A stretch of DNA of 60,274 bases from Escherichia phage phiG7. Each line of letters begins with the position of its first letter. The first letter of the stretch is position 1. The position numbers and the translations under genes are program-made. The notes under the pieces are model-generated. The model made no database searches. It worked only from the letters and a program-made list of their open reading frames with translations, and was not told where the DNA came from. Below, in pieces: positions 2,713 through 48,435 of the stretch. The stretch is from sequence record OQ791410.1; one strand, 5' to 3'.

Positions 2713-4689
2713 ATGCAGCTCCGCGATTATCAACAGGAAGCAGTTTATAGCGTATTCCGCTATTTTGATGCTGAAAAGGGTAACGCGGGGAACCCTTTGA
2801 TCCTGTTACCAACAGGGACAGGAAAATCGCTCGTTATCGCGGGGTTCCTCGATCTGCTTTATAAATGGTATCCAAACCAGCGCGTAATGATGTTAACTCA
2901 CGTCAAAGAGTTAATTGCACAAAACTATGATAAATTAATGAAAGTCTGGCCGGAAGCGCCAGCAGGTATTTACAGCGCAGGTTTGAAGCGTAAAGAAGTT
3001 TATAATCTTATCACATTTGCGGGGATTGCATCTGTTGCTAAGCATCCTAAAAAGTTTGGCAAGGTTGATCTAATCTTTGTGGATGAAGCGCACCTTATTA
3101 GTCCGCGTGATGCAACAATGTATAAGAAGTTCTTTGCAGCATTGCGTGAAGTTAACCCGTATTTAAAAATTATCGGTCTTACCGCTACACCTTATCGACT
3201 GGGTTACGGCTCAATTGTTAAGGAAAACGAAGACGATGATGCTTTATTTGATAAAGTAACGTTTGATGCGACTACCCCTGAAGCCTTTAACTGGTTCCTG
3301 GAGCAAGGTTATTTGCTTCCGGTTGTGCCAAAGCGTACAAAGATGGAACTGGACCTCAATGGTGTAGGGAAACGCGGTGGTGAGTTTATTCAAAGTGAGC
3401 TGCAAAGTGCGGTGAACCGCGACGACGCAACACTCCGCGCACTTGAGGAAGCCATTGAATGTGGTGAAGACCGTCAAAGCTGGCTTATATTTTGTTCTGG
3501 TATTGAACACGCTAAAGATGCGTGTGATATGCTGAACGATATGGGTATTAGTTGCGGATGTATTCACTCAAAGCTTGATGCAAAAGAGCGTGATGAAATT
3601 ATTGAAAAATTCAAGCGTGGAGAGTTTCGAGCGCTGACGAACAACAACGTCTTAACCACAGGTTTCGACCATCCGATGCTTGATCTAATTATCATGCTTC
3701 GCCCCACTGCCTCGGCGGTGCTATGGGTTCAGATGTTGGGTCGCGGTACGCGTCCGGTATATGCGGAGGGCTTTGATCTTTCCACGCAGGAAGGTCGCTT
3801 GCAAGCTATTGCAGCAAGCCCTAAGCAGAACTGCCTTGTACTGGATTTCAGCGGTAATACGCGTCGTTTGGGCCCTATTAACGACCCTGTTAAACCCAAG
3901 CGACCGGGCGAAAAAGGTGCTGGTACTGCTCCGGTTAAAGAATGCGATGTGTGCGGGTCGTATAATCATGCATCTGCTCGCTATTGCGGTGGCTTTGCAC
4001 CAATTCCTATGGACAGCGTTACACAGGAACAAGTTCAACAATTATATTTGAAGGGATTCAGACTACGTGGAACGGATTATGTTAAAGAAGGATTTTGCGG
4101 TCATGAGTTTAAGTTCCAGACGAAACTTAAAAAGGCAGCAAGTACCGAAGCACTGATCAAACAGGACATTCCGGTAGTTGAAGACTTCAAAGTTACGCAT
4201 GTGACTTATGCGAAGCACACTAAACGCAATGACAGCTCCAAACCTCCAACAATGAAGGTGACTTATTATTGCGGTAGTAAAATATTCAGCGAATGGGTAG
4301 CTCTACTTCATGGTGACTGGGCAGGTCGTAAAGCGGTTGCATGGTGGAAGAAAAGGACGCATCTTCCTTTACCACAAACTATTGAAGAAGCTCTTGATGT
4401 TGCTGCAATGCTTAAAACACCGAAATACATCAAAGTTCATACCAATAAGAAATGGCCTGAGATATTGAACTATGATTATGATGGTACGTGTTTCGGTAAG
4501 TTTGAAGCACCGCAGGACGACGAAGCTATTCAAGTTAAAGTATACGGGCAGGATGGAACAACCGAAGGTCCAAGCTATAACGATGATGTGAGCTGGGATG
4601 ATATTGTTTCGCAGAATACGCAAGGTATAACGGTGAACAATGTGGTTAATCCTGTGCAAGTAGATGATCCGGATTACGTTCCGTTCTAA
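2713..4689 (+). CDS. SF2 DEAH-box DNA helicase with C-terminal zinc-ribbon extension
   Basis: Walker A PTGTGKS, DEAH box (FVDEAHL), LTATP motif; CDVCGSYNHASARYC downstream; ATG at 2713 preferred over TTG at 2707. Confidence 0.7.
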   Translation: MQLRDYQQEAVYSVFRYFDAEKGNAGNPLILLPTGTGKSLVIAGFLDLLYKWYPNQRVMMLTHVKELIAQNYDKLMKVWPEAPAGIYSAGLKRKEVYNLITFAGIASVAKHPKKFGKVDLIFVDEAHLISPRDATMYKKFFAALREVNPYLKIIGLTATPYRLGYGSIVKENEDDDALFDKVTFDATTPEAFNWFLEQGYLLPVVPKRTKMELDLNGVGKRGGEFIQSELQSAVNRDDATLRALEEAIECGEDRQSWLIFCSGIEHAKDACDMLNDMGISCGCIHSKLDAKERDEIIEKFKRGEFRALTNNNVLTTGFDHPMLDLIIMLRPTASAVLWVQMLGRGTRPVYAEGFDLSTQEGRLQAIAASPKQNCLVLDFSGNTRRLGPINDPVKPKRPGEKGAGTAPVKECDVCGSYNHASARYCGGFAPIPMDSVTQEQVQQLYLKGFRLRGTDYVKEGFCGHEFKFQTKLKKAASTEALIKQDIPVVEDFKVTHVTYAKHTKRNDSSKPPTMKVTYYCGSKIFSEWVALLHGDWAGRKAVAWWKKRTHLPLPQTIEEALDVAAMLKTPKYIKVHTNKKWPEILNYDYDGTCFGKFEAPQDDEAIQVKVYGQDGTTEGPSYNDDVSWDDIVSQNTQGITVNNVVNPVQVDDPDYVPF

Positions 4690-10021: not shown

Positions 10022-10633
10022 ATGAGTGAATTTACCAAAATGATTAACGATGCGGAAATTAGACACAGCATTGAGAAGATTTTAAAGTTAATTGAAAATG
10101 GAGACACAGATACAGAGTTACGCGAAGGTCTTATCGAAACTCCGGCGCGTGTAGCAAAAGCTTATGCTACATGGTTTGGCGGTTATGGTGTCGATATTGG
10201 CGGGCTGTTTAAAACCTTTGAAGATGGTGCGGAAGGTACGGATGAAATGGTCATTGTCCGTGATATTCCTGTATACAGTCATTGTGAGCATCACATGGCC
10301 CCTATCATCGGTCGTGCTGTTGTGGGTTATGTTCCCAATGGGAAGATCGTTGGGCTTAGTAAACTGTCTCGCGTAGTTGATGCTTTTAGCCGTCGCTTGC
10401 AAGTCCAAGAGCGTCTAACTAACCAGATTGCAGACGCTATCCAGGAGCATTTAAACCCGAAAGCTGTATGCGTTTATATTGACGCCAAACATATGTGCAT
10501 GGAATCGCGCGGAGTTAAGCAGGTATGCGGCAGCTCTACTATTACCAAAGCGTTCCGGGGCGCTACAGAACTGGAGCATGGTAGCGATATTGGTAAAGAA
10601 TGGCGCCGGGAGTTCCTGGAAGCTTGTAAATAA
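10022..10633 (+). CDS. folE: GTP cyclohydrolase I
   Basis: [17 protein letters not shown] and GLSKLSR blocks characteristic of FolE. Confidence 0.8.
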
Positions 10634-10651
10634 TAGATAGCTTTACAGATC

Positions 10652-10690
10652 AAGCCCATATCGGTCATAATACTGGTATGGGCTTTTTAG
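10652..10690 (+). terminator. rho-independent terminator (long loop)
   Basis: AAGCCCATA ... TATGGGCTT stem then TTTAG. Confidence 0.5.
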
Positions 10691-10704
10691 TCATTGGGGG
10701 AAAT

Positions 10705-10911
10705 ATGTCAAGACAACTAATCTTAGAGACAGCATTCTACCAGCTTAAAGCAGGTACTGCGGATGCTTGTTCTGCAATACAGAATGATGCGCCTACAGAT
10801 GTCTTAAAGCAGCAGCTTATTGACGCTAAACATCGCGCGGACGAAGCATTTAATGAAGCGTGGCGTACTTTAGAACTAATTGATCAGTTTGGAGGACCGT
10901 TCCAAAAATGA
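10705..10911 (+). CDS. hypothetical small protein
   Basis: Start at MSRQL preferred; overlaps next gene start. Confidence 0.35.
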   Translation: MSRQLILETAFYQLKAGTADACSAIQNDAPTDVLKQQLIDAKHRADEAFNEAWRTLELIDQFGGPFQK

Positions 10912-11828
10912 ACGTTTTTATGGCAGCAGTTTACACGAACGGATATATGCCTGGACAGCAGCGTTATGAAAAACTGTCCGAGCATGAGAAAAATATCACG
11001 CGCAATCTGCCCCATATTTTGGAATCATATCACTACGTTGGGCGTCAGAAGTATGTTGATCAAATGCGTGCGGACGGGGCTAAAGTGTTTCTCGACTCCG
11101 GTGCATTCTCTGCGCACTCTTTGGGTGCGCACATTGATATTGTTGAATACTGCGAATACATTAAGCGCAACAAAGACATCCTTCGCGTAGAAGATGGTGC
11201 AGTAATGGCCTCGGTGCTTGATGGTATCGGTGATCCACTGCAAACCTACCGTAACCAGCTTGAAATGGAAGCACGCGGTGCTAAACCGTTACCGTGCTTT
11301 CACTTTGGTGAGGACTTCCGCTATCTTGAATATTACATGAAGAACTACGAATATATCACGATTGGTGGCATGGTAGGGCGTTCAACGGACACGCTTAAAA
11401 CTTGGCTGGACCGCATGTGGGACAAATACATTTGCGACGGTAGCGGTCGTCCTAAGATTAAGCTTCATGCATTTGGTATTACGTCCACAACCATTATGGA
11501 GCGTTACCCGTGGTATAGCTGTGACTCATCCTCCTGGATTCAAGCGGCAGCGTTTGGAAGTGTGGTTACTCCTCCGTGGGGCCCAATGCGCGTATCTGAT
11601 AAGTCACCAGACCGTCACCATTTTGGTAAGCATGTTTCAACGCTAACTGAAATTGAACAGGACGCTGTCCTTAAATACCTTGAGCAAAACGGTTTCACTT
11701 ACGAACGTTTATCAACAATCTATGAATCACGTGCCGCCTTCAACTTATGGGCGTATGGTGTAATTGCTGCAAACATTAACGCTACCCATGACGGCACATT
11801 CCGTGATCGTGTAATGGAGTTGTTCTGA
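10908..11828 (+). CDS. dpdA: DpdA-like DNA-guanine transglycosylase (TGT-fold)
   Basis: TGT-like blocks FLDSGAFS, ITIGGMVG, YSCDSSSW; location with queCDE/folE. Confidence 0.6.
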   Translation: MNVFMAAVYTNGYMPGQQRYEKLSEHEKNITRNLPHILESYHYVGRQKYVDQMRADGAKVFLDSGAFSAHSLGAHIDIVEYCEYIKRNKDILRVEDGAVMASVLDGIGDPLQTYRNQLEMEARGAKPLPCFHFGEDFRYLEYYMKNYEYITIGGMVGRSTDTLKTWLDRMWDKYICDGSGRPKIKLHAFGITSTTIMERYPWYSCDSSSWIQAAAFGSVVTPPWGPMRVSDKSPDRHHFGKHVSTLTEIEQDAVLKYLEQNGFTYERLSTIYESRAAFNLWAYGVIAANINATHDGTFRDRVMELF

Positions 11829-35347: not shown

Positions 35348-36409
35348 TTAGGAACCCTGATACTCACGAGTGATCAGGCGTGCGACTTTAAGCTGCTTGC
35401 GCTCAGGGAACGCACGACGCCAGGAATCTTCATGGGCCAGGTTGTTAGTGGTAGCAGCGTTAGACGGACCACCTTTAGCAGTTTGGGCAGCAGCCCAAGC
35501 ATGACCGACCGGATGCAGAATCCATTCAACACGGTTGTGAAGAACTTCTTCACCAGCGCCATTGTTAGCAGCTTCGTCACGAACCACAGCAGTCGGAACT
35601 TTTGGTGAACCAGCACCCATTGCAGTCGCGCCCGGACCGAACAGCCAGCTTTCGAAGACACCAGTAGCCGGATCATGTGGCATGGAGTCGTCTTCGATAA
35701 TGCGCAGGCCCTGATAATACTCAAACTGAGTTTCACCGCGAGCATCTGGAATGAAGTCGATCAGGTTCAGCTGACGCATACGGTTACGGACGGTAGAGTG
35801 TACCATAATCATGGTCAGACCACGAGCAGCATCACCCATCGTTGCCGTTGCGTTGATGAAGTTAGACGCGGTAAAGTTGGTCTGGTTGTTTACAAACGAA
35901 GAACCGGAAATATCGAAAGTCAAATCGTCGTTATGGGATTTCTTCGCATTAGCAAATACACCTTTCCAGGTTGCGATGTATGCAGCTTGCAGACGGCGAA
36001 CCCACCACGCAGACACGCGGTTGCCGATAGCGGTCATTGGGTCGTTACCGATCAAAGCTGATACCAGATCCGCAGAACCCCAGGATTTCGAACGACTCAT
36101 ACGAACCTGAACTTCAGAACCGGTAGTGATGTTTGACGGTTTGGACGGAGCACCTTTATCGATCGCAATATCTTCGTCTTCGTCTTTCAGGTCATTATAG
36201 AACGGCTCGTTAAAAGTCAAACCTGCACCAGCAAGGTTAGCAGATAAACGCTCGTCCATTACAACCGCACCGGATTGGATCAGGGCAGAAAGTTCAGCGG
36301 TCTGCGTCTGCACATAACCAGTGAAGATCTCAGGGACAATGACATCCTTCAAACGAGTCAGGTCAGTTTCGCCACGACCAAATGGTAGAATAATTTTAGA
36401 TTTAGACAT
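35348..36409 (-). CDS. major capsid protein
   Basis: 353-aa ORF downstream of portal/scaffold; RBS GGAGA. Confidence 0.6.
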   Translation of the reverse strand: MSKSKIILPFGRGETDLTRLKDVIVPEIFTGYVQTQTAELSALIQSGAVVMDERLSANLAGAGLTFNEPFYNDLKDEDEDIAIDKGAPSKPSNITTGSEVQVRMSRSKSWGSADLVSALIGNDPMTAIGNRVSAWWVRRLQAAYIATWKGVFANAKKSHNDDLTFDISGSSFVNNQTNFTASNFINATATMGDAARGLTMIMVHSTVRNRMRQLNLIDFIPDARGETQFEYYQGLRIIEDDSMPHDPATGVFESWLFGPGATAMGAGSPKVPTAVVRDEAANNGAGEEVLHNRVEWILHPVGHAWAAAQTAKGGPSNAATTNNLAHEDSWRRAFPERKQLKVARLITREYQGS

Positions 36410-37499: not shown

Positions 37500-38996
37500 C
37501 TATTCTTTATCGGAAGCGTCGTCTTCCTTAGGATCTTTGTTTACTTGCTGCTCTGCGTTTAAATCCGCTTTAGCATCATCGGGCAGAGGCCACTTCTTAA
37601 GCTCTTCTTCAAGAATTGCCATTTCTTCTTCAAAGCTTAATGTGGTTAAGCCCTGATCAACAAGCCATCCATGAATAGACTGCAAGCTGATCGGGGCCTT
37701 AAGGTTGCGTGCAGTAATAATTTGAACAAAGTCCTGACCGTTAAACATGCTCTTGGTAAATTCAAGATTAGGCTTAACCACAACTTTCTCTGGATCAGCA
37801 CCCATCCATTTAGCGCAGACCTTCAGCAAGTTTTCCAAACCTGCCGCACCAGTATACGCAATTCGAATCAGGCTAGCGGTACGCGCAGCAATACGCGTTT
37901 TCATAGCTTCGCCTGACTCCTGCGTGCTCTTGGTGTTGTTCACCATCTGCCCGGCTTTAATCTGAGCTTCTTGTTTATCCGCTGCTAGTGCAAGGCGTTG
38001 CTCGGACAAACCGTCACCGCTAACGCCTACATATTTAGCGTCACCCCCAAGAGCAACGTTAATGACCGCTCCAGGACCGATGCGCTGAGGGGCTTTATCT
38101 CCATTCTCACCCGAGCCACCAACAACAACTAACGTGTCCTGACCCTGCATATGCAGACTTTGACGGTAATCAGCGTCGCTTCGGTACATGCTTAGGCAGA
38201 TGTTAGCTAGCCCCAACAATGGAGGCGCTTCCGGTGCTGGTGTAATATCTGTTGTATTGACAAACTGGAAAGGTATTTCGTCCAGCGTGTTACCTTTATA
38301 ATAAGGAGCAATCATTTGCCCTTCATCATAATTAGTATTGTTGATAAATAAATGCTGGGAGTAGACCGCCCCACCTGCAACTTCATCTGTGTCCATCGGA
38401 CCTAATTGCAGGACGCGATAACGCTTCTCTTCTTTCCAGTCAAACTGATTGACACGTACAGGACCGCTTTCATCCAGTACAACCATGTTCAAGTTGATAT
38501 TACCCAGTTCATCTTTACCATCATCCCAGTTGATAATGGATAAAGCATCATAAACGCTAATATACGGTCTGTTATTTACATCCTCACCTTTTGGCAAGTC
38601 CAGAAGCAGGCCCAAACGTCCATTTTTTAACTGCATTTCGTTGATGCGACGTAGCAGAGCAATAATGTCTTCACCATCCGCAGTACACAGCTCCCGCATG
38701 TACTCCATTTCAGGAGGAAGCTGGATTGTAGGGGGCTTCTGGTGCAACAGACCTAAATTATTTGTGACAGCACTTGAATAATCGTCAGGGAAGTTAGCAC
38801 GCAGACGATAAGCGAGCCAACGTTGAAAGCCCAAATCATTAGGATTATTCATCCCATCAATAATCATGGAAGCTAAAGGTGGCAGATATTTAACACCTTC
38901 TTCCTTAATTTTATCTTCACCCTCATAGCAGTCGTTGCACTTAACCCATGCATCCTTCCACTTGTCATATAGCGGGTGAGTTGCATCAATACCCAT
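37500..38996 (-). CDS. portal protein
   Basis: 498-aa ORF immediately downstream of terminase large subunit. Confidence 0.65.
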   Translation of the reverse strand: MGIDATHPLYDKWKDAWVKCNDCYEGEDKIKEEGVKYLPPLASMIIDGMNNPNDLGFQRWLAYRLRANFPDDYSSAVTNNLGLLHQKPPTIQLPPEMEYMRELCTADGEDIIALLRRINEMQLKNGRLGLLLDLPKGEDVNNRPYISVYDALSIINWDDGKDELGNINLNMVVLDESGPVRVNQFDWKEEKRYRVLQLGPMDTDEVAGGAVYSQHLFINNTNYDEGQMIAPYYKGNTLDEIPFQFVNTTDITPAPEAPPLLGLANICLSMYRSDADYRQSLHMQGQDTLVVVGGSGENGDKAPQRIGPGAVINVALGGDAKYVGVSGDGLSEQRLALAADKQEAQIKAGQMVNNTKSTQESGEAMKTRIAARTASLIRIAYTGAAGLENLLKVCAKWMGADPEKVVVKPNLEFTKSMFNGQDFVQIITARNLKAPISLQSIHGWLVDQGLTTLSFEEEMAILEEELKKWPLPDDAKADLNAEQQVNKDPKEDDASDKE

Positions 38997-39007
38997 ATAC
39001 CCTCCAG

Positions 39008-40567
39008 TTAAATACCGATAGTTTTACCGACACCTGTATAAACAGCTTGATCCAGAACCATATAACGTACTTCATCGCCCATATGGTCTTCACATTCCGT
39101 ATCAACGTCGTCCTGATCTACTTCATCGCGCGGAAGACTTGGAACCAGTTCAAAGAAATAATTACAGTTATCGAAAACATACATTGCTGGATTTTCACGC
39201 GGTCCCGGCAAAGGTTTACCGTTTGCATCTTCCCGCAATGCAGCTTTAAGAAACTCACGCATTTTCTGCCATCCGCGTTTACGCGACCCAGCAGATTTAT
39301 CACTTCTCTTCCAATGGATACCGTTATACAGCTTACCGTTAAGACGGATTTTCTTCGCCATTGTTGCGGCGGTGGAGTTATTGTTCTCCAGATCCCAAAT
39401 AGAATTATCCGCAGGTCCAGGAACTACACGGTCGTGTATACCCCAGGCCAATTCCCGCTCCAGTATACCGCTTGCAATCTCTGAGTCCAGCAAATGTAGA
39501 CCTTCGTTTGTTTTACCGTTAGTGCCGTACCATTCGTTAATACGGAACAAGTCACCGCGAACAGTAGAGAAGGTAGTACCATCTTCACGTACAACATCCG
39601 AACCGTCACTAATAGCCCACCAGCCAACGGAGAATGGTTTTGAAGAACCCCAGTCGAAAGAACGTGTAATCTTCCAGCTTGATGGGATTGGGAATGGGCG
39701 TATTTTATGAACAGTGCTACGCCACAGATCATCGAACATACCGCCGGAGGTGATATCCCAGCTACCGCCTAACCATGCAGCTCGTTTGTTCGGGTCTGTG
39801 ATGGACATAAGCTCTGCAATATATTTCGGGCTCAGGTTTTTGTTCTCACGATAAGATCCGAAGATATGGCATTGCGTCGTAACCACATCTTCCTCTTTCT
39901 GCGTCCGCGGGTTAAACACTCGCGTAGTTTTCCTGAGTATCTTACCCATCGGTGCAGCGTCAATGAAGCGTTTCTTAACCCAGTTATGCCCCGCACCAAA
40001 CGGGTTACTGGTAGCAAACACTTCCAGAGGAATGTCTGGTAAATATGTAACAGTACCGTCCGGATTGATGATTGGATTATCTTCGGGTAGGAATGATGAA
40101 CGGTTACAGGACATCATTGCTTCAAACAAACGCCCGTCCGGATACTTTGTTAATTCGTTCCATCCGATAAACGGGTATTCGTGACCATGATAAGACCAAT
40201 AATCCTTTTCTTTGCAAGCAACACGGAACAGCAATTCTTCCCCAGTAGGCCAAACCCATTTATAATCAGACTTGGAACTAAGGAATTTAGCACCGTCTTT
40301 AAATTCAGGAAACCAACGCTGTGACTTAGTTACAAGGTCATCAAGGTTTTTATATTCACGGTCGAATATAATACCCTTCCAAAATTTACCGTACCCTACG
40401 CCAACATTCTTACGGAAACGCATAAGCTGGCAGTCTGTTTTTCCAGGACCGCGAGTTCCGTGGTATAAGATAATATCAGCAGGGCAGGATAGAGCGAGTG
40501 TCTGTGAACCTGGATGTGGCTTCCAGACTACTCGCGGCATGTTATCAGGTTGTCGGTTTAGCTCCAT
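39008..40567 (-). CDS. terminase large subunit
   Basis: Walker A-like HGTRGPGKT; size and position. Confidence 0.75.
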   Translation of the reverse strand: MELNRQPDNMPRVVWKPHPGSQTLALSCPADIILYHGTRGPGKTDCQLMRFRKNVGVGYGKFWKGIIFDREYKNLDDLVTKSQRWFPEFKDGAKFLSSKSDYKWVWPTGEELLFRVACKEKDYWSYHGHEYPFIGWNELTKYPDGRLFEAMMSCNRSSFLPEDNPIINPDGTVTYLPDIPLEVFATSNPFGAGHNWVKKRFIDAAPMGKILRKTTRVFNPRTQKEEDVVTTQCHIFGSYRENKNLSPKYIAELMSITDPNKRAAWLGGSWDITSGGMFDDLWRSTVHKIRPFPIPSSWKITRSFDWGSSKPFSVGWWAISDGSDVVREDGTTFSTVRGDLFRINEWYGTNGKTNEGLHLLDSEIASGILERELAWGIHDRVVPGPADNSIWDLENNNSTAATMAKKIRLNGKLYNGIHWKRSDKSAGSRKRGWQKMREFLKAALREDANGKPLPGPRENPAMYVFDNCNYFFELVPSLPRDEVDQDDVDTECEDHMGDEVRYMVLDQAVYTGVGKTIGI

Positions 40568-42087: not shown

Positions 42088-42096
42088 GTTCCCTCC

Positions 42097-42118
42097 AATA
42101 AAAAGGGGCTGACGCCCC
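42097..42118 (-). terminator. terminator-like hairpin between endolysin-like and holin genes
   Basis: GGGGC-GTCA-GCCCC followed on minus strand by TTTTTATT. Confidence 0.5.
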
Positions 42119-42643: not shown

Positions 42644-42904
42644 TTACCCGTCAAACCACTCGCTAATGTACCAGCTAACAAGACCTTTTCCACCTTTATC
42701 GACCCCGTAGCTGGAGTAAAAAGTGAAGTTATCGGGTTCGTGTTGCAGGATAACCATAAAGTCATGCTGAGTGCTGTCAATAATTGCAATGGCGATTTCC
42801 TCGTTATCTGTGATAAAGATTTCGCCACCAATTACAACATGCGTCCCGTGGTCAACTACCTTGCTGTGATAAGCAGGTGGGATCAGGTGACTGAATGTAG
42901 TCAT
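42644..42904 (-). CDS. hypothetical protein
   Basis: 86-aa ORF. Confidence 0.35.
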   Translation of the reverse strand: MTTFSHLIPPAYHSKVVDHGTHVVIGGEIFITDNEEIAIAIIDSTQHDFMVILQHEPDNFTFYSSYGVDKGGKGLVSWYISEWFDG

Positions 42905-43366
42905 TTAAAAACCCTCAAACGATATTGTATCAACGCCAAGAAATGCACATGTAGTATGCTTGATTGCTAGCTCGATAGCTTCGCGTGCGCTTGCACCAGC
43001 AGCTAGAGCACCCGCAGCAAACACGCAGCCACTGCCATCCGACCCCCATCCATCCAGCATGGGTTCGCTCAAAGTACCATCATTATAAATAAAATGGCAA
43101 GTACCTTCCGGAGTAACCGCAAGACCGCAAGTTTGCCCGTAATCATCTTTGCTGTAAAGTTTAATATCAGGGAACTTAACAGGCTCAGGACTATTAAAAT
43201 AACGCAGCACTTGGTCAGTGAATGCAGTCAAACCGCACAAGCCCAGTAAAAACCGTCCACGATGTCCATTTACACTATGAACTTTCTTATAAGCAGTCAC
43301 AGCTTCCCCGCGCATAACTCCACGGTCCGCAGCTAATACTTTTCCATCGTAAGCAATGGTTGTCAT
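42905..43366 (-). CDS. HslV/proteasome-like Ntn-hydrolase family protein
   Basis: N-terminal MTTIA (Thr nucleophile after Met), GDG-like and GSDGSG...SAREAIELAI blocks resembling E. coli HslV by eye. Confidence 0.55.
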   Translation of the reverse strand: MTTIAYDGKVLAADRGVMRGEAVTAYKKVHSVNGHRGRFLLGLCGLTAFTDQVLRYFNSPEPVKFPDIKLYSKDDYGQTCGLAVTPEGTCHFIYNDGTLSEPMLDGWGSDGSGCVFAAGALAAGASAREAIELAIKHTTCAFLGVDTISFEGF

Positions 43367-43548
43367 TTAATTTTCCTTTGGTCTTGGATAATAACAATAC
43401 ATAAAACAAACAGAATAAGACAGATGCACAGTCCTGTACTTGCAAAGATTCGGATAACCGTGGAAGGTTGTTCGACTACTGTATAGGTATAAAGCCCAGC
43501 GAACATTAACGTCGCAAATAAAAACAATTCGGCGTATAGTTTGGTCAT
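43363..43548 (-). CDS. small membrane protein
   Basis: 61-aa ORF with hydrophobic helices. Confidence 0.35.
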   Translation of the reverse strand: MTKLYAELFLFATLMFAGLYTYTVVEQPSTVIRIFASTGLCICLILFVLCIVIIQDQRKIK

Positions 43549-43610: not shown

Positions 43611-44033
43611 TTAATTAAGCACAATCTCAACGTCTTTAACCCAAGTATGAATGATAAATGCTCCTGGCTGTTCAGGATCTTGATCCGGGCCAACGTAGAA
43701 CTTTTTACCTTCCCAACCTTTAATTGGGTCATGTACAATAAACTTGTGATTAGTTGTATCGATCACAACCTGATGCAGTGCTCCAGGAACATTGAGACTT
43801 GGGACAGTGCACAAAAACAAACCACCCATGTATATAGTTTCACGCCCACCGCCTACAGAACAGATGTGGTCAACATTGTTTTGTACTAGATATTCGGAAA
43901 TTGTTATTTCCCAATTGTTGTAATATCGATCATGAAATTCCGCAATTACTTCTTCTACAGGTCTATTAAGGATCATTGCCAGACACGCAGAAACGCATGT
44001 ATTCAATGTTGGTTGCTTGACATGTTTAATCAT
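43611..44033 (-). CDS. C39-like (papain-fold) cysteine peptidase
   Basis: Cys motif QPTLNTCVSACLAMIL and His/Asp motif HQVVID...IVHDP as in bacteriocin-processing C39 domains. Confidence 0.55.
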   Translation of the reverse strand: MIKHVKQPTLNTCVSACLAMILNRPVEEVIAEFHDRYYNNWEITISEYLVQNNVDHICSVGGGRETIYMGGLFLCTVPSLNVPGALHQVVIDTTNHKFIVHDPIKGWEGKKFYVGPDQDPEQPGAFIIHTWVKDVEIVLN

Positions 44034-44034
44034 T

Positions 44035-44505
44035 TTACGCCTCGTATATAACTTCCGGCTCGTTATTATAAGGACGCAGCAGCAAACGCGCTACCAGCGC
44101 CGTACGCTCGCTTAACCCTTGCGGATGCACAAACCCAACAAACTGGTAGTGACAACCGCGCAGGTGGTGCAAGCTCTTAGCACAATGACACGCTTCCAAA
44201 CGAAGTGTCTCGCCCGACTGCCATTTAACCACAATGGTAGAGCTCGCGGTCATGTTAATTTCTACATCACCGATTTCAACCTGAAGACGCAGAACATCTT
44301 CTACAACGTTGCGGACATATAGCAGGATCTGCGATGTAGGCATAACAATGAGCCCATTCCAGTCCTTCCCGCGACCCAATCCGCAATAACGCGCAAAGTT
44401 GGCTATCAACTGCGTTTCTGTAACCTGTTTTACTTCAAACGACTTCTTCAGTTGGCAGTCTTTGGATTCGTCCATTGCATCAACAATAGTTTTAACGTCA
44501 GCCAT
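44035..44505 (-). CDS. hypothetical protein
   Basis: 156-aa ORF. Confidence 0.35.
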   Translation of the reverse strand: MADVKTIVDAMDESKDCQLKKSFEVKQVTETQLIANFARYCGLGRGKDWNGLIVMPTSQILLYVRNVVEDVLRLQVEIGDVEINMTASSTIVVKWQSGETLRLEACHCAKSLHHLRGCHYQFVGFVHPQGLSERTALVARLLLRPYNNEPEVIYEA

Positions 44506-44508
44506 TAT

Positions 44509-44901
44509 TTACTCCGCTAATGTGTAAGGAATACCGGATGCTTTAATCCGTCTGTACATGTCCATAGTACCAGCTCCGCCTGGAAACACAATAGCGTGAT
44601 CTGGTTTGGGATCAGTATCCAGCATTAATTGATTGCGGTAAGCGCCCGCTTGTGCATTATAAGCACCTCTGGCGTTATACCGTATCTTTGTATTCGGTAA
44701 GGAAAGATTGTTCCACGGCGCAGGAAACGCCTCCGTCTTAATACCGTTTCGCTCCGCCCAATGTGCGCAAATGCGGTCAACACCGTCAGCGTCACCGTGG
44801 CGAAGTGTGGTTATCCTTCTTTGCATATGCAGCTTATCCAATTGAGCGTAAATATACTCCACATGCTTAAAATCTCGACCTCCGGTGACGACTAATAGCA
44901 T
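44509..44901 (-). CDS. possible SLOG/DUF2493-like protein
   Basis: N-terminal LLVVTGGRDF motif. Confidence 0.3.
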   Translation of the reverse strand: MLLVVTGGRDFKHVEYIYAQLDKLHMQRRITTLRHGDADGVDRICAHWAERNGIKTEAFPAPWNNLSLPNTKIRYNARGAYNAQAGAYRNQLMLDTDPKPDHAIVFPGGAGTMDMYRRIKASGIPYTLAE

Positions 44902-48173: not shown

Positions 48174-48435
48174 GATGTAAACCCCTTTAAGTTAATTTGT
48201 AGTACCCTTGCGGTATGTGTATATAGTAGTGCTAGACCGATCATGTGTCTACACCTTTTTGCATCTTTTTATAAAAATATTTTTGGCAGCTTTATATGTA
48301 TGTGTGCGCCCGCGCGAATACTCCAGATGATGTGATGTTAGTTAGGCCGTTTGTGCTAAACATGCAAGGCAAGCATAATTTTCACTAGATGCAAAACAAT
48401 ATCAAAATAGCACTTTTGGCCTATTCAATATCACG
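48174..48435. promoter_or_regulatory. AT-rich divergent intergenic region (probable divergent promoters)
   Basis: No credible ORF; flanked by divergently oriented genes. Confidence 0.45.

Follow-up and report, generated by a model that had tools for sequence, protein, structure and literature searches.

A PPH-family, proteasome-like N-terminal threonine peptidase gene of the Seuratvirus-type Escherichia phage phiG7

The 60,274-nt sequence of Escherichia phage phiG7 (OQ791410.1), analyzed here over its full length and called the window, is the genome of a Seuratvirus-type E. coli siphophage (Queuovirinae) and carries on its minus strand, at positions 42905..43366, a gene for a proteasome/HslV-like N-terminal threonine peptidase of the PPH family. 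The open reading frame (ORF), as read from the sequence, has 153 codons followed by a TAA stop, and its product starts MTTIAYDGKVLAADRG. This protein is an HslV/20S-beta-like N-terminal nucleophile (Ntn) hydrolase (MEROPS T1, PF00227) with the alpha-beta-beta-alpha sandwich fold of proteasome subunits, and it is the Seuratvirus orthologue of PPH, matched to the published description of the family, with a PHROG 1040 match as an indirect proxy for clustering. As to its role, we favor, with a probability of roughly 0.7, that PPH is an accessory, ATPase-independent N-terminal-threonine peptidase that acts on cytoplasmic substrates and outside head assembly.

A first-pass annotation, made from the sequence of the window alone, had proposed an HslV/20S-beta-like Ntn hydrolase, and strong similarity was indeed found at both the profile and the structural level. 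The window protein matched PHROG 1040, 'peptidase HslV family', with an E value of 8e-33. When an alignment of 18 family sequences, reaching down to about 25-30% identity, was compared as a profile with solved structures, HslV was retrieved at E 1e-9, BPH (bacterial proteasome homologue) at 1e-7 and 20S beta subunits at ~1e-6, and proteasome-family chains made up 60 of the 60 matches listed, the best 60 of 190 at E <= 1. An hhalign comparison of the PPH family with E. coli HslV gave a probability of 96.9% at a sequence identity of about 20-24%, with gaps in the H2 region and in the H3-H4 connection. The AlphaFold2 model of PPH (pLDDT 94.2, pTM 0.88) contains a single helix at residues 46-57, a 20-residue loop, strands, helices H3 (113-121) and H4 (126-134) and a final strand at which the chain ends, helix H5 (the C-terminal S12/H5 elements) being absent.

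The catalytic residues could be located by reading the sequence and by hhalign. A Thr directly follows the initiator Met, as the first-pass annotation had pointed out, and its codon (Thr2, 43361..43363, minus strand, as are all the codons that follow) aligns with HslV Thr1, and Thr2 is predicted to serve as the nucleophile at the N-terminus once Met has been cleaved off. Asp14 (GAC, 43325..43327) corresponds to Asp17 of HslV and the proteasome, and Lys28 (AAA, 43283..43285) to their Lys33; Gly45 (43232..43234, by hhalign) is the counterpart of the oxyanion-hole glycine, Gly45 in HslV and Gly47 in the proteasome. Gly111-Ser112-Gly113 (GGC AGT GGC, 43028..43036) aligns with the HslV GSGG block containing Ser124 and with Ser129-Gly130 of the proteasome. 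Conservation was scored in 166 family representatives retrieved without N-terminal seeding, and the locus set seeded on MTTIAWD(G), being biased toward that N-terminus, was left out of the Thr count. The nucleophile was Thr in 156 of the 166 sequences and Ser in the other 10, so that a hydroxyl residue at position 2 was conserved in all of these unbiased homologues; Asp14 and Lys28 were present in 166/166 and Gly45 in 165/166, and in the G-S-G block both glycines were found in 166/166 and the serine in 145/166. A propeptide is absent, and profile matches begin at residue 1 in nearly all hits. Judged from these alignments, the catalytic set is complete and invariant across the family, and the active site is under strict purifying selection.

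The PPH family was described by Fuchs et al. in 2021 as proteins of ~140 residues from tailed phages and prophages, mostly of Proteobacteria, belonging to group I (HslV/BPH-like), with no propeptide and without helix H2 and the C-terminal S12/H5 elements; unprecedented quaternary structures were held possible by the same authors, who also noted non-prophage exceptions in Pseudoalteromonas and Mesorhizobium (PMC8665760). The RefSeq label of the Seurat, CAjan and slur01 orthologues is 'peptidase HslV family', and the GenBank record of CAjan reads 'putative protease'. Because PPH was thus already described in 2021 and annotated in RefSeq, the finding in the window is a correct rediscovery of a known family and adds little beyond the existing annotation and that bioinformatic description. 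When the clusters of the ten best hits were looked up, none was linked to WP_042125023.1, the reference sequence published for PPH.

An exhaustive profile search of 1.84 billion cluster representatives yielded 442 clusters (50% identity) at E < 1e-30, mostly of 140-150 amino acids and matched from residue 1; among the 166 representatives the median length was 148 (5-95% range, 141-200), compared with 153 for the window protein. With a distant member as the tblastn query, homologues were found in 569 cultured-phage records, more than 1% of the collection searched, including Jerseyvirus, Kagunavirus, phiCbK-like phages and Xanthomonas and Erwinia jumbo phages, and a further 129 loci came from IMG/VR. 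The claim of the first-pass annotation that such a peptidase is not a standard phage function therefore stands as far as the gene is non-core, and fails in that the family is described and widespread (PPH, PHROG 1040, 569 records, 442 clusters). The phages and genomes that carry PPH were nearly all proteobacterial, with scattered matches in metagenome-assembled genomes (MAGs) of Acidobacteria and Bacteroidetes. PPH was also present in 23 Acetobacteraceae genomes (Roseomonas, Falsiroseomonas and others), ~50% identical to P0010, among variable metabolic genes (TctC, aspartate carbamoyltransferase, enolase-superfamily, amidase, PlsY) and with no phage context; the Acetobacteraceae are thus an additional clade of non-prophage exceptions beyond those of Fuchs et al. 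The rV5-like phages gave only partial tblastn matches, to a longer form. In Phapecoctavirus iGC_PHA_EC001 a 230-amino acid 'peptidase HslV family' protein (3770-4462) adjoins PhoH and lies two genes from the endolysin. The match of this rV5-like 230-amino acid protein to PPH is confined to residues 68-135, the C-terminal half, and it is possibly a member of another proteasome-like family, e.g. AAH or RPC.

The neighborhood of PPH was compared in a set of 80 viral loci plus the window and three contigs; the ORFs of 85 loci were all clustered, and these loci stood for 71 lineages with PPHs less than 80% identical. The only neighbors that recurred in more than a few lineages were non-homologous packaging genes, i.e. 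three types of the large terminase subunit (TerL), the small subunit (TerS), P22-, T7- and DUF4055-type portals and Mu F, and the existence of a conserved PPH partner gene was accordingly rejected. A same-strand ORF of at least 400 amino acids started within 4 kb downstream in 44 of 56 lineages and within 4 kb upstream in 23 of 45. Among the 128 genes that stand first or second downstream of PPH in 64 lineages, terminase subunits dominated and only 1 was a lysozyme. An AAA+ or HslU-like partner was found near PPH neither in the window and its relatives nor in the 71 viral lineages or 39 genomic loci; the earlier observation that no ATPase partner is nearby thus holds for the window and extends to the neighbor clusters of the other lineages.

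These results suggest the following course of action for PPH. In the hhalign comparison PPH and E. coli HslV have the same N-terminus, MTTI. Host methionine aminopeptidase would remove Met1 and expose Thr2, as it does in E. coli HslV, for which the removal of Met1 is by itself activating, in agreement with PMC7468587. The free amino group and the hydroxyl of Thr2 would then serve as base and nucleophile, aided by Lys28 and Asp14, and Gly45 and the Gly-Ser-Gly loop would shape the oxyanion hole and the active site. PPH is expected to self-assemble into rings, a step that its activity probably requires by analogy with every characterized close relative. In the cytoplasm of the infected cell, the peptidase would act on peptides or on proteins that are loosely folded, most likely independently of an ATPase, because no unfoldase lies alongside PPH in any lineage and the HslU-facing helix H2 is missing.

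Several points weigh against this proposal. The window protein alone scored 16.7 bits with Pfam Proteasome (PF00227), below the gathering threshold of 22.4, the same model matched only 7 of 18 PPH family members at E < 0.01, and a phmmer search of the PDB with the window protein alone gave no match; the homology nevertheless stands because it is established by the comparison at the profile level. Without H2, rings might assemble differently or not at all, and in connectase the same fold acts as a ligase and not as a protease. Promoter and terminator scans of the region, intended to define the operon, returned counts no better than those of shuffled sequence. No biochemical or genetic study of any PPH member (substrate, oligomeric state or phenotype) was present in the searchable literature, and for this reason all that is said here of catalysis, the loss of Met1, the oligomeric state and the substrates is inferred. 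In the CRISPRi-ART fitness screens, the non-model phage (PTXU04) provided no information on PPH.

In the window, the region around the PPH gene is 91-97% identical to phages CSP1, ECP2304, CAjan, Greed and WildeMaa. A Shine-Dalgarno sequence read from the sequence (AAGGA, 43374..43378, minus strand) lies 7 nt 5' of the PPH ATG, which overlaps (ATGA) the TGA stop of a 61-amino acid hydrophobic ORF (43363..43548, minus strand; phrog_22841, unknown function), a probable membrane protein with two transmembrane segments. On the other side, the PPH stop abuts (TAAATG) the ATG of an 86-amino acid ORF of unknown function (42644..42904, minus strand; phrog_23528, E 3e-50), and because of these two junctions the three genes are probably co-translated. 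Homologues of the 61- and 86-amino acid neighbors were found in none of the other PPH loci, and both are confined to Seuratvirus-like phages. PPH is approximately the sixteenth gene of a co-directional series of small genes. This block opens ~4.8 kb upstream, where the coding strand changes in a divergent intergenic region (about 48174-48435), and continues into the lysis and packaging genes; downstream on the PPH strand follow the endolysin, holin, spanins, TerS, TerL (39008-40567), portal (37500-38996), scaffolding protein and major capsid protein (35348-36409). Between the endolysin stop and the likely holin start, a hairpin rich in GC, GGGGCGTCAGCCCC, with a T-run behind it (42095-42118, minus strand), may be a terminator or an attenuator that separates the two genes; the total terminator count of the region was no higher than in shuffled sequence.

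Upstream of PPH, also on the minus strand, three further genes drew our attention. A C39-like papain-fold cysteine peptidase of 140 amino acids is encoded two genes upstream (43611..44033). It is adjacent to PPH in the window and in locus L006, and no PPH lies within 5 kb of four distant homologues, so that it was rejected as an obligate partner and is an occasional, non-obligate neighbor. A SLOG-superfamily YAcAr protein (PF10686, E 4e-18) is encoded three genes upstream of PPH (44509-44901), and a PF10686 protein lies directly downstream of PPH in the unrelated Mu-like contig L003 (4637-5185). Found beside PPH in the window and in L003 and in none of the rest of the 71 lineages, it was rejected as a partner and is an occasional co-passenger. 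The same contig encodes a 444-amino acid head-region protein (10388-11722) that matches Acb1 (PF23474, anti-CBASS nuclease family) in precomputed Pfam data. The third protein, of 156 amino acids (44035-44505; phrog_25149), shows weak similarity to TerL of the same phage, in the N-terminal region of TerL that holds Walker A (BLASTP E 6e-5, 27% over 97 amino acids; GLGRGKDWNG and GVGYGKFWKG, respectively), and its iterated hidden Markov model also recruited TerL-sized proteins from other loci; on this resemblance it may be a fragment derived from the TerL N-domain. In 2 of 64 lineages a Cpn10/GroES-family gene (PF00166, best E 9e-14) was among the two genes directly downstream of PPH, an adjacency that hints at a link to proteostasis in numbers too small to interpret.

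Other roles were weighed against that of an accessory cytoplasmic peptidase. PPH rings might dock the host HslU (ClpY), replacing or competing with HslV, and retarget ATP-dependent degradation for the benefit of the phage. HslV is the closest solved relative, the MTTI N-terminus is common to PPH and E. coli HslV, the phage encodes no ATPase of its own, and the largely proteobacterial distribution of PPH coincides with bacteria in which HslUV is common. Yet PPH lacks H2 (PMC8665760), which is one of a pair of apical helices that HslV turns toward HslU, and this loss disfavors canonical docking on the host HslU; moreover, PPH and HslV are only about 20-24% identical, the Acidobacteria and Bacteroidetes matches ill fit a narrow dependence on a host partner, and direct evidence of interaction is lacking, all of which makes this possibility unlikely. 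Somewhat broader, and likewise unlikely, is the idea of a counter-defense or host-takeover protease, working on the host HslU or, in Seuratvirus, together with the C39-like peptidase and the 61-amino acid protein, destroying host immune or stress proteins before lysis. PPH could alternatively time lysis by processing or degrading a component of the lysis cassette or the co-translated 61-amino acid protein, with which its start codon overlaps. PPH lies directly upstream of lysis genes in Seuratvirus and in the unrelated Jerseyvirus Salmonella phage SETP7, whose PPH (gp56, 38804-39238) is ~23% identical and closes a block of small genes running from a divergent intergenic region and is followed by holin, holin, HNH, endolysin and terminase genes, and the longer HslV-family gene of Phapecoctavirus is likewise close to an endolysin. 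This adjacency is accounted for in Seuratvirus and Jerseyvirus by the lysis genes sharing the slot between the accessory block and the terminase; as a general rule it was rejected, since it fails across the 64 lineages, where terminase subunits dominate among the genes after PPH. In Xanthomonas phage L522, furthermore, the lysis genes are ~17 kb from PPH and on the other strand, the 61- and 86-amino acid neighbors are restricted to Seuratvirus, and the chromosomal copies have no lysis context, so that we regard a lysis role as distinctly unlikely. That PPH is not a protease at all, acting instead as a connectase-like peptide ligase or transpeptidase or as an amidohydrolase on a non-protein amide, appears more improbable still.

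The first-pass annotation had also suggested that PPH could act in prohead maturation. Built into proheads or acting on them, it would cleave the scaffold or capsid protein in place of a missing canonical head protease. The premise of the annotation proved correct for the window, where the stretch from portal to capsid contains no canonical prohead protease. None is annotated either in SETP7, which also bears PPH, and many lineages have PPH a short way ahead of co-directional terminase and portal genes. However, the head module of the window contains a scaffolding protein (phrog_206, E 7e-44) between portal and capsid, and scaffold-only assembly without a protease is established for P22, T7, phi29 and SPP1. 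The PPH gene itself is outside the head module, with the lysis cassette and both terminase subunits in between, and many PPH lineages have P22- or T7-type portals, whose assembly systems are protease-free. In phage L522, PPH (MTTIAYDG..., which retains the Asp, the Gly and the GSG) belongs to an early leftward operon on the opposite strand, and a verified ClpP-family protease (PF00574, 106 bits) is encoded between portal and capsid. Klebsiella phage KLPPOU148 carries PPH among small minus-strand genes that interrupt the structural region. These placements, together with the Acetobacteraceae copies among metabolic genes, indicated that PPH behaves as a mobile accessory gene and not as a core morphogenetic enzyme. 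The prohead-protease role was therefore rejected on head-module content, L522 and the chromosomal copies, and we consider it very improbable; action against host proteins is more plausible than capsid maturation.

PPH is the only primarily viral family of proteasome homologues, and it is common in phages and in hundreds of metagenomic clusters. Capsid maturation, the most distinctive functional suggestion for the window protein, is contradicted by the comparative evidence. If either the redirection of HslU or a module of two proteases were true, a viral proteasome homologue would for the first time have an assigned function, and Seuratvirus growing on E. coli K-12 would offer a convenient system for work on PPH function.

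When compared with known systems, the window protein agrees with the published PPHs (PMC8665760) in length class, phage or prophage carriage, the Thr after Met, the lack of a propeptide, the catalytic Thr/Asp/Lys set and Gly, the absence of H2 and of the C-terminal S12/H5 elements, HslV and BPH as closest relatives and the absence of an associated ATPase; nothing substantive differs, the window protein being slightly longer than average. Canonical prohead proteases (ClpP/S49-like, HK97 gp4-like S78 and T4 gp21-like S77) resemble PPH only as phage-encoded peptidases, whereas their folds and catalytic types are unrelated and they are encoded between the portal and capsid genes. BPH (PDB 5OVS, 5OVT and 5OVU) is larger (about 185-200 amino acids), keeps H2, has a long acidic pore loop and is chromosomal, whereas PPH is phage-borne. 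HslV (ClpQ), which is the peptidase component of HslUV, an ATP-dependent protease of bacteria, forms a dodecamer of two hexameric rings and has ~175 amino acids, with the apical helices H1 and H2 as its HslU-docking face and a long H3-H4 connection, and is encoded alongside HslU; in contrast, the window PPH is ~23 residues shorter, with a single helix in place of these two, has H2 and the long H3-H4 connection deleted and is not accompanied by an hslU gene.
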